A stretch of DNA of 64,000 nucleotides from Escherichia coli (GTDB taxonomy: Bacteria; Pseudomonadota; Gammaproteobacteria; Enterobacterales; Enterobacteriaceae): NCBI RefSeq assembly GCF_016026235.1, contig NZ_CP065613.1. One strand, 5' to 3'. The notes beneath the pieces were generated by a model. That model ran no database searches. It was not told where the DNA came from and saw only the letters and a list, made by a program, of their open reading frames with translations. The translations under genes and the position numbers were made by a program. Below, in pieces: positions 2,011-50,223 of the stretch. Every line of letters begins with the position of its first letter. Within the stretch, counting starts at the first letter, position 1.

Positions 2011-2589
2011 ATGTACCAGGATCTTATTCGTAACGAACTGAACGAAGCGGCGGAAACGCTGGCTAACTTTTTAAAAGATGACGCCAATATTCACGCCATT
2101 CAGCGCGCGGCGGTCCTGTTAGCAGACAGCTTTAAAGCCGGTGGCAAAGTGCTTTCCTGCGGCAACGGCGGTTCCCATTGCGACGCTATGCACTTTGCCG
2201 AAGAGTTGACCGGTCGCTACCGTGAAAACCGTCCGGGCTACCCGGCGATTGCTATTTCTGACGTTAGTCATATTTCCTGCGTCGGTAATGATTTCGGTTT
2301 CAATGATATTTTCTCCCGCTACGTTGAAGCGGTAGGTCGCGAAGGCGATGTACTGCTGGGGATCTCCACCTCCGGTAACTCTGCAAACGTGATCAAAGCG
2401 ATCGCAGCGGCGCGTGAGAAGGGGATGAAAGTGATCACCCTGACCGGTAAAGACGGCGGTAAAATGGCTGGCACGGCGGATATCGAAATTCGCGTTCCGC
2501 ACTTTGGTTATGCCGACCGCATTCAGGAGATTCACATTAAAGTGATCCATATCCTGATCCAGTTAATTGAAAAAGAGATGGTTAAGTAA
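2011..2589 (+). CDS. gmhA: D-sedoheptulose-7-phosphate isomerase (SIS domain)
   Basis: 192-aa product starting [20 protein letters not shown]; the ORF-track start at 1849 is an upstream in-frame extension. Confidence 0.9.
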
Positions 2590-2745
<156 letters not shown>

Positions 2746-3562: not shown

Positions 3563-4273
3563 TGCCAGTTGTGGCTGCACAACTTCGTGGCTTAACGGCT
3601 TGCTGACCACGTAACGACCATTGACCACAGAAACGGTCGGTGGCTTACGGGTTTGCTCAAAGTAGTCGTAACCCAGCTTCAGTTGCTCCCAGAAGTCCTT
3701 AAAGTTGGAATATTTATGGCGCTTCATATTGGCGTCGGTCATGCGGAACGGGTAAATACTCACTTGCACGCTCGGCTGACCAAACACCAGCGCACCAGTA
3801 ACGAACTGGAAGATCTCATCAATACCCTGATTGGTCATTGCGTAGCAGCCGATGGAAACACAATCGCCGTGGATCATCAGGTATTTCCCTTCATAACCAT
3901 GCGCACGGTCATAGGCATTGGGGAAACCAATATTAATCGCTTTGTAGTAACGGCTGTCTGGTTTTAACTGATTACGCTGGACGCTATAAAACCCTTCCGG
4001 GCTTTTGAAATCGCCCTGACGCTGTTTTGGCCCTAAGCCGCCGGAATATTTACAGATTTTATAACTGTCGAGCAGCTGATATTGCTCGCCCATTTTGACG
4101 TAGAGATCGAGCGTACGTTCTTCCTTGAAGATCTGGATGTAGACAGGGGATCCCATCAACTGCTGCTTATACTCTTTGCTCACTGGCGTGGTCGAGCTAC
4201 TGCTGCCCAGCAAACCGGCAAACGAAACGCACGGGATCAACAACATCGCAAGAATTAATGCGATTTTACGCAT
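3533..4273 (-). CDS. yafK: L,D-transpeptidase family periplasmic protein
   Basis: 246-aa ORF with signal peptide [19 protein letters not shown] and YkuD-like catalytic region (HGDCVSIGC). Confidence 0.9.
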
Positions 4274-31689: not shown

Positions 31690-32355
31690 GTGAAAAATTA
31701 TCTCTGGCTGGTGGCGCTGCTTCCCCTGCTTAGCGGGTGTGAATCGCAGGCCATTCTGGTCAAAAAAGACGACGCATACTTTGCGCCACCGAAAACCGAA
31801 GCGCCGCCTCCGGCAGACGGGCGTGCCGGGGGCGTATTTGAAACCGGCTACAACTGGTCGCTAACCGCCGATCGGCGGGCTTATCGTGTGGGCGATATCC
31901 TGACGGTGATCCTCGAAGAATCCACCCAGTCGAGCAAACAGGCGAAAACCAACTTCGGCAAAAGCAACACCGTCGATATCGGCGCGCCGACCATTTTTGG
32001 ACACACCAAAGATAAGCTTTCCGGCTCCATCGATGCCAACCGCGACTTTGACGGCAGCGCCACCTCCCAGCAGCAGAACAGTCTGCGCGGGGAGATCACC
32101 GTGTCCGTCCACGCGGTGCAGCCCAACGGCATCCTGGAAATTCGCGGCGAAAAATGGCTGACCCTCAACCAGGGCGATGAGTACATCCGTTTAAGCGGCC
32201 TTGTGCGCGCCGACGACATCCAGAACGACAACTCGGTTTCCTCCCAGCGGATCGCCGATGCCCGCATCTCCTATGCCGGACGCGGCGCGTTAAGCGACGC
32301 CAACGCCGCAGGCTGGCTGACGCGACTGTTTAACCATCCTCTGTTCCCGATTTAA
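31690..32355 (+). CDS. lfgH: lateral flagellar L-ring lipoprotein, FlgH family
   Basis: Lipobox LLSGC near the N-terminus; FlgH-like sequence. Confidence 0.9.
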
Positions 32356-35488: not shown

Positions 35489-36418
35489 ATGCGAGTAACC
35501 ACCCAACAAACCTACGTCTCGATGACGCAAAGTTTTAATAATCTCTCCGGCGATCTGGCGCACGTGGTCGAGCAGATGGCAACCGGTAAGCAGATTTTGC
35601 AGCCGTCGGATGACCCGATCGCCGCCACGCGCATCACCCAGTTAAACCGCCAGCAGTCGGCGATTGAACAGTATCAGAGCAATATCGACTCCGCGTCGGC
35701 GGGGTTAAGCCAGCAGGAATCGATTCTCGATGGCGTCAACAACAGCCTGCTGGCGGTGCGCGACGACCTACTGGAAGCGGCGAACGGCACCAATACCGCC
35801 GATTCGCTCGCAAGCCTCGGCCAGGATATTGAGACGCTCACCGAATCGATGGTCGCGGCGCTGAACTATCAGGATGAAGACGGGCACTACGTGTTTGGCG
35901 GCACCATCAACGATCAGCCGCCGATTGTGGCAGTGGACGATGATGGCGATGGTGTCACCGACAGCTATAGCTACCAGGGCAACAGCGACCACCGCCAGAC
36001 CACCGTATCGAACGGCGTGGAAGTGGATACCAACGTGGCGGCGAGCGATTTCTTCGGCAGCAATTTAGACGTGCTCAACACGCTCAATTCGCTCTCGCAG
36101 GAGTTGCAAAACCCCAACGTTGACCCGGCAGATCCGCAGGTGCAGAGTGATATTCAGAACGCCGTTGATGTGGTGGACACCGCCTCGGACGACCTCAACG
36201 CCTCGATTGCGTCACTCGGCGAGACGCAGAACACCATGTCGATGTTGAGCGATGCGCAGACCGATATCTCTACCTCTAATGATGAGTTGATTGGTTCATT
36301 ACAGGATCTCGATTACGGCCCGGCGTCGATCACCTTTACCGGACTGGAAGTGGCAATGGAAGCTACCCTCAAGACTTACTCGAAGGTGAGTGAGTTGAAT
36401 TTGTTCAGCGTTCTCTAA
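35489..36418 (+). CDS. lfgL: lateral flagellar hook-associated protein 3, FlgL family
   Basis: Start at MRVTTQQTYVSM; flagellin-like N-domain motif QPSDDPIAA. Confidence 0.8.
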   Translation: MRVTTQQTYVSMTQSFNNLSGDLAHVVEQMATGKQILQPSDDPIAATRITQLNRQQSAIEQYQSNIDSASAGLSQQESILDGVNNSLLAVRDDLLEAANGTNTADSLASLGQDIETLTESMVAALNYQDEDGHYVFGGTINDQPPIVAVDDDGDGVTDSYSYQGNSDHRQTTVSNGVEVDTNVAASDFFGSNLDVLNTLNSLSQELQNPNVDPADPQVQSDIQNAVDVVDTASDDLNASIASLGETQNTMSMLSDAQTDISTSNDELIGSLQDLDYGPASITFTGLEVAMEATLKTYSKVSELNLFSVL

Positions 36419-46320: not shown

Positions 46321-46336
46321 CTGTATACTTTACCAG
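46321..46336. promoter_or_regulatory. LexA box upstream of dinB (CTGTATACTTTACCAG)
   Basis: CTGT-N8-CCAG SOS box about 17 nt upstream of the dinB start. Confidence 0.6.
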
Positions 46337-46352: not shown

Positions 46353-47408
46353 ATGCGTAAAATCATTCATGTGGATATGGACTGCTTTTTCGCCGCAGTG
46401 GAGATGCGCGACAATCCCGCCCTGCGCGATATCCCTATTGCTATTGGCGGCAGCCGTGAACGTCGGGGGGTGATCAGCACCGCCAATTATCCCGCGCGTA
46501 AATTTGGCGTGCGTAGCGCTATGCCTACTGGGATGGCGCTCAAATTATGCCCACATCTCACCTTGCTTCCGGGGCGCTTTGACGCCTACAAAGAAGCCTC
46601 AAATCATATCCGTGAAATCTTCTCGCGCTACACCTCGCGCATTGAACCGTTGTCACTGGATGAGGCTTATCTCGATGTCACCGATAGCGTCCATTGCCAC
46701 GGTTCTGCGACCCTCATCGCCCAGGAAATCCGCCAGACGATTTTCAGCGAGCTGCAACTGACGGCGTCTGCGGGCGTGGCACCAGTAAAGTTTCTCGCCA
46801 AAATCGCCTCCGACATGAATAAACCCAACGGCCAGTTTGTGATTACGCCGGCAGAAGTTCCGGCATTTTTACAAACCTTACCACTGGCAAAAATCCCCGG
46901 CGTCGGCAAAGTCTCGGCGGCAAAACTGGAAGCGATGGGGCTGCGGACCTGCGGTGATGTACAAAAGTGTGATCTGGTGATGCTGCTTAAACGCTTTGGC
47001 AAATTTGGCCGCATTTTGTGGGAGCGTAGTCAGGGGATTGACGAACGCGATGTTAACAGCGAACGGTTGCGAAAATCCGTCGGCGTGGAACGCACGATGG
47101 CGGAAGATATTCATCACTGGTCTGAATGTGAGGCGATTATCGAGCGGCTGTATCCGGAACTTGAACGCCGTCTGGCAAAGGTAAAACCTGATTTACTGAT
47201 TGCTCGCCAGGGGGTGAAATTAAAGTTCGACGATTTTCAGCAAACCACCCAGGAGCACGTCTGGCCGCGGCTGAATAAAGCTGACTTAATCGCCACCGCG
47301 CGTAAAACCTGGGATGAACGCCGCGGCGGGCGAGGTGTGCGTCTGGTGGGGCTGCACGTGACGTTGCTGGATCCGCAAATGGAAAGACAACTGGTGCTGG
47401 GATTATGA
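46353..47408 (+). CDS. dinB: DNA polymerase IV (Y-family)
   Basis: 351-aa [25 protein letters not shown]... Confidence 0.95.
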
Positions 47409-47857
47409 ATAACATACAAATAAGAAACTATCAGCCTGGCGATTTTCAGCAACTATGCGCTATTTTCATTAGAGCGGTTACGATGACAGCCAGTGAGCAT
47501 TATTCACCACAACAAATTGCCGCCTGGGCGCAGATTGACGAATCTCGCTGGAAGGAGAAACTCGCGAAATCACAAGTGCGGGTTGCAGTCATTAATGCAC
47601 AACCGGTCGGCTTTATTACCTGCGTTGAACACTATATCGATATGTTATTTGTTGACCCTGAATACACCCGCCGTGGGGTTGCCAGCGCTTTGTTAAAACC
47701 TTTGATTAAGTCTGAATCCGAACTTACGGTAGATGCCAGCATAACTGCAAAACCCTTTTTTGAACGTTATGGTTTTCAGACAGTTAAGCAGCAGCGCGTT
47801 GAATGCCGGGGAGCGTGGTTTACTAATTTTTATATGCGATATAAACAGCAACATTAA
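47405..47857 (+). CDS. yafP: GNAT-family N-acetyltransferase
   Basis: 150-aa ORF whose start overlaps the dinB stop (ATGA); no yafN/yafO ORFs lie between dinB and this gene. Confidence 0.85.
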
Positions 47858-48174
47858 ATCCAGCTTGCAATGAAAATAACGCAAGTCTAGTATGTGCGCG
47901 TTTTCTCATTCCACAAACTGCAAGGAGGTAAATCATGACAAATCCTTTATCAATGACTCTTTGCAGACCTTTCCAGGATTAATTCTTTTTTTCTTGCCCT
48001 GGATTCGTCTGCCATTTCCTGATTTTTATATTTATATACTCTAAATAATTCGAGTTGCAGGAAGGCGACAAGCGAGTGAATCGCCAGGAGCTTACTAAAG
48101 TAAGTGACTGGGGTGAACGAACGCAGTCGCAGTACATGCAACTTGAAGTATGACGAGTATAAATGGAATGGTAC

Positions 48175-48429
48175 ATGGGCAAATATATTCGTCCCTTATC
48201 CGATGCGGTATTTACCATCGCATCTGATGACCTGTGGATCGAGAGTTTAGCGATCCAACAATTACACACCACGGCAAATTTACCCAACATGCAGCGCGTA
48301 GTGGGGATGCCAGATTTACACCCCGGACGCGGCTACCCGATTGGCGCGGCGTTCTTCTCTGTTGGTCGTTTTTACCCGGCAAGACGTCGCGGTAACGGTG
48401 CTGGAAACCGAAGCCGGGCGTTATCCTGA
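48175..48429 (+). pseudogene. ykfJ: RtcB-like RNA ligase N-terminal remnant
   Basis: MGKYIRPL...[19 protein letters not shown] resembles an RtcB N-terminus; the frame ends after ~85 codons. Confidence 0.5.
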
Positions 48430-48709
48430 CACGCTGCGTTCGTCGGGGCCGGGCGGTCAACATGTCAATAAAACCGACTTGGCGGTACGCGCCACGCATC
48501 TGGCATCCGGTATTAGCGTGAAGGTTCAGTCAGAGCGCAGCCAGCATGCTAACAAACGGCTGGCGCGATTGCTGATTGCCTGGAAGCTGGGGCAGCAGCA
48601 ACAGGAAAATAGCGCGGCGCTGAAATCGCAGCGGCGAATGTTCCATCACCAGATTGAACGTGGCAACCCGCGACGGACATTTACAGGGATGGCTTTTATC
48701 GAAGGATAA
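48341..48709 (+). pseudogene. prfH: peptide chain release factor homolog RF-H, C-terminal remnant
   Basis: GGQ motif region ([21 protein letters not shown]) with no complete N-terminal domain; overlaps the RtcB-like remnant in another frame. Confidence 0.55.
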
Positions 48710-48765
48710 TGAAGGATGAAACTGCCGGAAGGTGATTGAACGCCATCCGGCAGCAAATCAAATAA

Positions 48766-50223
48766 TTACTTCGCCGGAATTTCTTTCAGCAGTTCAGTCA
48801 GCAGTGTCCAGTAATGACCTACGCTTTCGATGTGAACTTGCTCATCCGGAGAGTGTGGACCGGTGATAGTTGGCCCGATAGAAACCATGTCCATTTCCGG
48901 ATACGGTTTTTTGAACAGACCACATTCCAGGCCCGCGTGGATAATCTGGATGTTCGGTGTCTTGTTGAACAGGCGCTGATAGGTTTCACGTACCAGATGC
49001 ATCACCGGAGAATTAGCGTCCGGCTGCCAGCCAGGATATGCGCCTTTCGCTTCGGTTTTCGCGCCAGCCAGTTTACCCAGCGAATCCAGCATGCTCACCA
49101 CGTAGTCTTTACCGCTGTCGATCAGAGAACGGATCAGACAGTGAATTTCTACGTTATTGTCAGTCATGGTCACCACACCGACGTTCAGGGAGGTTTCGAC
49201 CACACCTTTTGCCACGTCGGAATTGCGGATCACACCGTTCGGGGTGGCGTTCAGCAGACGAATAAAGGTATCGCGAGATTTCGCAATCAGGGCAGCTTTA
49301 TCGTTCGCAACAGAGTCCAGCAGCAATGCCAGATTCTTCTCTTTTTCTGCCAGCTCGTTTTTCAGAATGTCCTGATAGGTATTCACCAGAGATTTCAGTG
49401 CGTCGACTTTATCAGCTGCGACAGCAATGGTCGCAAAGGCTTCACGCGGGATGGCGTTACGCAGTGTACCGCCGTTGAAATCGATAAGGCGCAGATCCAG
49501 TTCTTCCGCATGACCCGCCAAGAAGCGCACCAGCAGTTTGTTGGCATTACCGAGGCCAACGTGGATTTCACCGCCGGAGTGACCGCCTTTCAGACCTTTT
49601 AAGGTTAACTTGAAGGTTTCAAAACCAGCTGGAACCTCTTCACGATCTAAATGCAGGTTGGAGGTGAAGTCGATACCCCCCGCACAACCCATGTAGATTT
49701 CACCTTCTTCTTCGGAGTCGGTGTTAATCAGAATATCAGCCTGCAACCAGTTGCTCTGTAAGCCAAAAGCACCGTCCATACCGGCTTCTTCGGTCATGGT
49801 CAGCAGCACTTCCAGCGGACCGTGAACCACGTTTTCGTCAGCCAGAACCGCCAGTGCAGAGGCCATACCAATGCCGTTATCCGCACCCAGCGTGGTGCCG
49901 CGCGCTTTAACCCATTCGCCATCAATATAAGGCTGGATAGGATCTTTCGTGAAGTCATGCACGGTGTCGTTATTTTTCTGCGGCACCATATCGAGGTGGG
50001 CCTGTAAGACGACCGGTTTACGATTTTCCATACCTGCGGTAGCAGGTTTACGAATCAGGATATTACCTACCTGATCGCGTTCGACATGGAAACCTTTCTC
50101 TTTTGCCCAACCAACAATGTATTCAGCGAGTTGCTCTTCATGATAGGACGGGTGAGGAATAGAACAGATTTTGGCAAAAATATCCCACAGCGGCTGTGGA
50201 GATAATTGAGACAGTTCAGACAC
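48766..50223 (-). CDS. pepD: cytosol non-specific dipeptidase (M20 family)
   Basis: 485-aa ORF MSELSQLSPQPLWDIFAKICSIPHPSYHEE... Confidence 0.95.
   Translation of the reverse strand: MSELSQLSPQPLWDIFAKICSIPHPSYHEEQLAEYIVGWAKEKGFHVERDQVGNILIRKPATAGMENRKPVVLQAHLDMVPQKNNDTVHDFTKDPIQPYIDGEWVKARGTTLGADNGIGMASALAVLADENVVHGPLEVLLTMTEEAGMDGAFGLQSNWLQADILINTDSEEEGEIYMGCAGGIDFTSNLHLDREEVPAGFETFKLTLKGLKGGHSGGEIHVGLGNANKLLVRFLAGHAEELDLRLIDFNGGTLRNAIPREAFATIAVAADKVDALKSLVNTYQDILKNELAEKEKNLALLLDSVANDKAALIAKSRDTFIRLLNATPNGVIRNSDVAKGVVETSLNVGVVTMTDNNVEIHCLIRSLIDSGKDYVVSMLDSLGKLAGAKTEAKGAYPGWQPDANSPVMHLVRETYQRLFNKTPNIQIIHAGLECGLFKKPYPEMDMVSIGPTITGPHSPDEQVHIESVGHYWTLLTELLKEIPAK

Follow-up and report, generated by a model that had tools for sequence, protein, structure and literature searches.

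The DNA analysed here (a stretch of 64 kb from one strand of Escherichia coli, hereafter the window) shows, as can be said with high confidence, the usual gene arrangement of this E. coli chromosomal region, lafU-dinB-yafP-(rtcB2-prfH)-pepD, with two segregating loss alleles, and the locus is a case of ordinary gene decay. Both the two-gene dinB-yafP operon and the K-12-type loss of rtcB2-prfH have already been published; previously undescribed here is only a rare 189-bp deletion in prfH together with an adjacent cluster of substitutions. The 2.5 kb around the locus were 100% identical to the chromosome of E. coli FDAARGOS_943 (NZ_CP065615.1), for which the annotation lists the gene order lafU, dinB, yafP, “RtcB family protein” pseudogene, “peptide chain release factor-like protein” pseudogene, pepD (minus strand), gpt, and frsA, with both the rtcB2 and the prfH remnant designated incomplete pseudogenes by PGAP (NCBI). 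All population counts given below refer to 5426 complete E. coli genomes, nearly all of which were matched by the 2.5-kb query at 95–99% identity.

The upstream part of the locus comprises the following features:

46321..46336, plus strand: LexA (SOS) box CTGTATACTTTACCAG, 5' of dinB, a match to CTG-N10-CAG
46353..47408, plus strand: dinB, DNA polymerase IV, intact, 351 aa (WP_001226183.1), an open reading frame with Pfam matches to IMS (6e-51), IMS_HHH, and IMS_C
47405..47408, plus strand: ATGA, shared by the dinB stop and the yafP start as seen in the sequence, a junction without the 759-bp yafN-yafO segment
47405..47857, plus strand: yafP, GNAT N-acetyltransferase, intact, 150 aa, an annotated open reading frame with a Pfam match to Acetyltransf_10 (2.5e-19)

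The element CTGTATACTTTACCAG is taken to be the dinB SOS box given what is established about the K-12 dinB promoter, and dinB-yafP would accordingly be SOS-induced through it. YafP has the same length as its K-12 counterpart, and translation of yafP is presumably coupled to that of dinB at the ATGA overlap. This overlap exists because the 759-bp yafN-yafO module, which in K-12 has ATTATGA at both ends, is absent exactly between the two ATTATGA repeats, and tblastn with K-12 YafN and YafO as queries returned no match anywhere in the 64-kb window. A preceding reading made from the sequence alone (henceforth the sequence-only reading) had described dinB as directly overlapping yafP without toxin-antitoxin genes between them and had called the operon reduced. 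The first statement was borne out by the ATGA at 47405–47408 and the blank tblastn search of the window, and the term is apt, yet it denotes the normal state of about 46–48% of E. coli genomes, published in 2011 (PMC3105422). LexA box, intact dinB, ATGA overlap, and intact yafP, i.e., the gene-pair features of the two-gene operon of Gutierrez et al. 2011, were all found. That study reported the two-gene ATGA operon for 40% of sequenced strains and 50% of the ECOR strains, with CFT073 as the model (PMC3105422). Compared to the two-gene operon of CFT073 and B1 strains (PMC3105422), the ATGA overlap, the lack of yafN and yafO, the LexA box, and the intactness of both genes are shared, and dinB-yafP shows no structural difference. 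The downstream region does differ, as many strains with the two-gene operon have an intact rtcB2-prfH, which is deleted here; CFT073 is probably one of these strains (PMC1586002).

The yafNO segment was present in 2847 of the 5426 genomes and hence missing from about 48% of them, and the 38-nt ATGA junction between dinB and yafP was found in 2518. Copies at other sites were rare across the population (2861 places in 2853 records). Loci of other species were retrieved with a degenerate pattern of the DinB C-terminus, which yielded four Escherichia species-representative loci. Two of these (E. whittamii and the SCPM-O-B-8794 representative) carry the four-gene dinB operon, one (MOD1-EC7003) has a two-gene operon with the identical ATGA junction, and in Escherichia sp. 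E1V33 the order is dinB-yafN-yafP, with yafO alone gone via a separate small microhomology deletion. Toxin-antitoxin modules are often horizontally mobile, and the two-gene form could thus be ancestral, with yafNO a mobile cassette that was inserted later in some lineages and an operon that was never expanded in the strain analysed here. The 7-nt direct repeat ATTATGA around the 759-bp segment is equally possible as a target duplication, the identical two-gene junction recurs in the one other species representative, MOD1-EC7003, and among the native gene overlaps of E. coli ATGA is the most frequent (PMC3105422). Against this scenario, the operon has four genes in E. fergusonii (PMC3105422) as well as in E. 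whittamii and the SCPM-O-B-8794 representative, the E1V33 arrangement is a decay intermediate that makes sense only if the four-gene form came first, and yafNO is 95–100% identical among genomes and almost always single-copy at one site, unlike an actively mobile cassette. We therefore regard later insertion as unlikely. The ATTATGA brackets, taken together with the operons of E. fergusonii and the other Escherichia representatives, favour repeated loss of yafNO over its insertion.

Downstream of yafP, an intergenic repeat and the remnants of two genes were delineated:

48034..48157, no strand assigned: ERIC-type intergenic repeat between yafP and the rtcB2 remnant, an insertion relative to the intact locus of strain UID2404240036
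48175..48381, plus strand: rtcB2 remnant (K-12 ykfJ), residues 1–69 of 379, with 98.6% identity to an intact homologue in tblastn and a pseudogene annotation
48373..48381, plus strand: junction of deletion 1 (1027 bp lost) with microhomology TACCCGGCA, derived from pairwise offsets and alignment
48374..48709, plus strand: prfH remnant, residues about 31–53 and 117–204 of 204, based on alignments, tblastn, Pfam RF-1 (2e-22), and a pseudogene annotation

The ERIC-type repeat also occurs in K-12, is missing from some intact operons, and has multiple short matching places per genome. The ERIC2 primer sequence matches 48098–48119 with one mismatch, and the only Rfam hit on the element was a sub-threshold one to V_AS5 (44 bits, cut-off 96). 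Scanning of 47700–48800 returned no promoter-like site above the threshold and a single minus-strand terminator-like site, as expected by chance. A hand-picked TTGCAA-17-TAGTAT (8/12 matches) lies below the threshold of the promoter scan. RNA folding of the rtcB2 leader, taken from an intact operon, gave a z-score of −1.25, which is not significant. A conserved 15-codon open reading frame with a perfect Shine-Dalgarno sequence was also observed upstream of rtcB2.

The frame of the rtcB2 remnant continues to a TGA at 48427–48429. Its Pfam RtcB match covers profile positions 1–35 of 426 only and lies under the gathering score, and in place of a full-length RtcB2 of about 379 aa with the catalytic H294, only the N-terminal residues were found, H294 being located in the deleted part. 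The prfH remnant retains the GGQ motif (Q122) and the RF-1 domain, and is without a start codon and without most of domain 2; a full-length PrfH of 204 aa coupled to the rtcB2 stop was thus not found, and the GGQ motif is insufficient by itself. Mechanically called open reading frames (48163–48429 and 48341–48709), which differ in frame, share 89 nt only because both continue beyond the deletion junction, while the truly homologous rtcB2 and prfH segments overlap solely in the 9-nt junction microhomology.

For reconstruction of the deletions, the yafP-pepD interval was aligned to K-12 (L002), to the intact locus with yafNO of strain UID2404240036 (L004), and to an intact-length locus without yafNO (L003); L004, L003, and L006 served as intact operons for comparison. 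Calculated from alignment offsets of −128 and +899, deletion 1 measures 1027 bp, with both breakpoints within the 9-nt microhomology TACCCG(G/A)CA. Deletion 1 took RtcB2 residues 70–379, the overlap of the rtcB2 stop with the prfH start, and about the first 30 residues of PrfH, and left the two remnants mutually out of frame. It would have been microhomology-mediated and would have preceded the second deletion described below. A deletion of roughly 1000 nt across prfH and the gene upstream of it was reported for K-12 MG1655, W3110, and O157:H7, both genes being intact in CFT073, 042, and UTI89 (Baranov et al. 2006, PMC1586002). Relative to K-12 ykfJ/prfH (b0235/b0236), the site between yafP and pepD, the ERIC insertion, the junction of deletion 1, and the out-of-frame remnant of RtcB2 residues 1–69 are the same, whereas prfH has here undergone an additional in-frame deletion of 189 bp and carries a neighbouring cluster of substitutions. 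Moreover, K-12 has kept yafNO and lost the lateral-flagella (Flag-2) cluster, while here yafNO is absent and a degraded Flag-2 cluster is kept.

For deletion 1, the junction 38-mer matches MG1655 with 100% identity. At least 1213 genomes carry it, and the true number may be higher, since a single SNP is enough to prevent a megablast seed. The rtcB2-prfH interior removed by the deletion is still found in 2715 of the 5426 genomes, i.e., it is missing from about half, and rtcB2 copies elsewhere are rare across the population (2758 places in 2717 records). Since the 1213 genomes with the junction are far fewer than the 2711 without the rtcB2 interior, other junctions or junction SNPs must exist. 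Judging from these sequences, the deletion is the same as that of K-12 for this window, which does not necessarily hold for every truncated strain. In O157:H7 TR01, the locus shows an apparent duplicated block.

Two further features mark the prfH remnant:

48427..48442, plus strand: junction of deletion 2 (189 bp, i.e., 63 codons, in frame), with the one surviving repeat GA(C)ACNCTGCGTTCG that encodes (D/E)TLRS, based on alignments
48409..48427, plus strand: patch of about seven clustered, mostly synonymous substitutions 5' of deletion 2, based on alignments

Deletion 2 spans two 15-nt direct repeats encoding DTLRS (residues 49–53) and ETLRS (residues 112–116). It would be the later event, between these repeats, removing 63 more codons of PrfH. 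Its junction 38-mer was detected in 32 of the 5426 genomes (0.6%), and the 189-bp segment was undetectable in 42. Three backgrounds carry the deletion: one with yafNO (14EC033, whose yafP is additionally interrupted by IS elements), one lacking yafNO and having Flag-2 deleted as in K-12 (ETEC6335 and an isolate from a horse), and one without yafNO in which Flag-2 is present (this window). A 45-mer of the patch was found only in the 32 genomes with deletion 2, apart from 9 partial matches that represent intact alleles with just two of the changes, and a 27-mer of the patch was matched exactly by none of 100,044 species-representative genomes. Compared by eye, the patch has CGTTAT in common with the sequence 5' of the second repeat, which fails to explain all changes. 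Simple slippage does not account for the mostly synonymous cluster beside deletion 2, and recombination at this site may have been more complex.

Taken together, the operon retains 535 of its 1751 bp and physically lacks 1216 bp, so that no frame correction restores rtcB2-prfH. Decay by frameshifts only was rejected, given that 1027 and 189 bp are absent rather than frameshifted. The sequence-only reading had proposed an RtcB-like N-terminal and a release-factor-H C-terminal remnant overlapping in different frames, both of which lie where it had placed them, and an internal deletion that joined the 5' end of rtcB to the 3' part of prfH, which the alignment to intact operons confirmed. It had further named full-length rtcB-like and prfH frames emerging upon frame correction as the finding that would speak against it, and with 1216 of 1751 bp missing none emerged. 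Regarding the number of events, its single deletion corresponds to the main one of 1027 bp, which is the deletion known from K-12 and O157:H7 (PMC1586002) and not peculiar to this strain; the count has to be amended, as a second one of 189 bp lies inside prfH.

Missing sequence and disrupted frames could in principle stem from assembly or sequencing errors in one record, and the source record is indeed the only one with at least 99% identity across the whole 2.5-kb query. All three junctions are shared, which refutes this reading: at least 1213 genomes, MG1655 among them, have exactly the junction of deletion 1, that of deletion 2 recurs in 31 further genomes, which were assembled independently and come from various hosts and countries, and the ATGA junction is common to 2517 other genomes. 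An assembly error is very unlikely for deletion 2, because 32 independent assemblies share its junction, and an artefact of one record as the source of the whole pattern is next to inconceivable.

The other Escherichia representatives had an intact rtcB2 in three cases, wherever the locus reaches the gene, and an intact prfH in both loci that extend that far (L013 and L017, the latter from MOD1-EC7003). The operon being intact in related species, the deletions are derived. All four combinations of the yafNO and rtcB2-prfH states exist. As estimated from 29 evenly spaced records, yafNO with a deleted rtcB2-prfH accounts for about 41%, no yafNO with an intact rtcB2-prfH for about 34%, no yafNO with a deleted rtcB2-prfH for about 14% (roughly one in seven, including the source genome), and yafNO with an intact rtcB2-prfH for about 10%. 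The pattern is, as far as sequence comparison goes, that of a pseudogene in decay through one repeat-mediated deletion after another, while recombination reassorts polymorphisms at closely linked sites.

The intact pair had been thought by the sequence-only reading to act in ribosome rescue or repair, which has meanwhile been demonstrated experimentally (PMC9304027, PMC9223846): PrfH frees the peptide from ribosomes in which a colicin E3-type toxin has cleaved the 16S rRNA (Tian et al. 2022, PMC9304027; Maviza et al. 2022, PMC9223846), and RtcB2 religates the cut 16S rRNA (PMC9304027, PMC9223846). RtcB2 H294 and PrfH Q122 are catalytic residues that were mutated in PMC9304027. While the intact operon protects against colicin E3, the truncated operon of BW25113/K-12 is non-functional and provides no protection (PMC9223846). 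Relative to the intact module of ATCC 25922 (Tian 2022, Maviza 2022), the remnants occupy the same locus and share the leader, 69 RtcB2 codons, and the GGQ and C-terminal part of PrfH, but the catalytic core of RtcB2, the prfH start, the translational coupling, and most of the PrfH domain reading the damaged decoding centre are lost.

The prfH remnant might nevertheless be alive as a minimal GGQ domain with a C-terminal tail, i.e., an ArfB-like, stop-codon-independent peptidyl-tRNA hydrolase. Deletion 2 is in frame (63 codons) and spares the GGQ motif along with the last 88 residues, a 122-codon frame is open from a TTG at 48341, and the substitutions of the adjacent patch are mostly synonymous; if the remnant were expressed, this patch would be a trace of selection. 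An ATG or GTG with a Shine-Dalgarno sequence is lacking though, the TTG at 48341, a position within the rtcB2 remnant, has no ribosome-binding site, and the promoter scan passed no promoter-like site. The ATG of the 141-codon open reading frame once proposed for K-12 prfH (PMC1586002) appears, by position estimate, to fall within the 189-bp segment of deletion 2. Three non-synonymous changes and one synonymous change were counted by eye in a comparison of deletion-2 alleles, which suggests neutral decay, and in E. coli C122 a different secondary deletion has taken out the GGQ region altogether. Furthermore, prfH alone was not protective even when full-length and overexpressed (PMC9223846). A living remnant is therefore considered extremely improbable, and hardly any credence is given either to an ArfB-like minimal rescue factor translated from a non-canonical start or, separately, to the 15-codon open reading frame as a leader peptide sensing ribosome damage.

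The rtcB2-prfH remnants are thus best regarded as non-functional, by analogy with the truncated operon of K-12/BW25113. As neither a catalytic RtcB core nor a prfH start codon is left, a loss of rescue and religation is expected, and the strain would lack the RtcB2-PrfH-dependent rescue and religation of ribosomes cut at A1493 of the 16S rRNA by colicin E3-type toxins. Its predicted sensitivity to colicin E3-type ribotoxins equals that of K-12, barring some other form of protection. The population counts can be of use as a reference when choosing strains for the study of RtcB2-PrfH, and they illustrate continuing, stepwise pseudogene decay via repeat-mediated deletions.

Directly 5' of the junction of the in-frame 189-bp deletion in the prfH remnant, the window carries a cluster of about 7 mostly synonymous substitutions (48409-48427). 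This patch is limited to alleles with the 189-bp deletion, and the sequence flanking it is 97-98% identical to K-12. Simple slippage does not account for the patch; no donor sequence for it was found, including by exact search of species-representative genomes with a 27-mer. A block of roughly 83 nt, of the type seen in alleles with the 189-bp deletion, occurs in two copies in one genome only, that of E. coli O157:H7 TR01 (NZ_CP033605.1; positions ~2494-2800 of comparison locus L007), where the copies enclose ~106 nt of the segment deleted in the window. The doubling may mark an intermediate of recombination or the outcome of two alleles having recombined, or it may be an error of assembly.

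The neighbouring operon also varies among the compared loci. In E. coli 14EC033, which carries the 189-bp deletion, nested IS1 and IS3 insertions break yafP (449-2939 of locus L010). At the locus of Escherichia sp. E1V33 (L015, 1690-2120) the dinB operon takes yet another, third form: yafN is retained but yafO is deleted beyond its first ~10 codons, so that the antitoxin gene stands orphaned, with dinB on one side and yafP on the other. Two small features lie upstream of the rtcB2 remnant.

Features upstream of the rtcB2 remnant (window positions)
47935-47982, plus strand, 15-codon ORF MTNPLSMTLCRPFQD in the leader upstream of rtcB2
48034-48157, ERIC-type intergenic repeat, an insertion downstream of yafP and upstream of the rtcB2 remnant

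The repeat is common to the window, K-12 and MOD1-EC7003, partial in E1V33 and in L003 (E. coli, intact-length rtcB2-prfH without yafNO), and missing from L004 (E. coli, intact operon with yafNO) and L013 (another Escherichia species representative); in Rfam it matches Vibrio RNA AS5 below threshold. The ORF starts 6 nt after a perfect Shine-Dalgarno sequence (AAGGAGGT), and in the alignments it is kept, with a single S-to-L change, in K-12, intact-operon strains and 3 other Escherichia species representatives. This conservation carries little weight, because the relatives compared are too close. The ORF may encode a leader peptide or have arisen by chance. The leader is not mentioned in the published rtcB2-prfH accounts examined.

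Elsewhere in the window (~4400-46282), the lateral-flagella (Flag-2) gene cluster, missing from K-12, is present yet degraded, and lafU is full length (924 nt), in contrast to the fused form of 786 nt in K-12.

Disrupted genes and insertions in the Flag-2 region (window positions)
18712-19556, IS5
20497-24239, glycosyltransferase gene, split by a second ISEc60
30234-32203, flgH, split by an ISEc60
35489-36418, flgL, with an internal stop

A toxin-antitoxin pair lies near the start of the window.

Toxin-antitoxin neighbourhood (window positions)
2053-2594, minus strand, dinJ-yafQ toxin-antitoxin pair, intact
3729-4226, rayT REP-associated transposase, adjoining dinJ-yafQ

Since dinJ-yafQ is intact, the strain has not undergone a general loss of the toxin-antitoxin systems of this neighbourhood.
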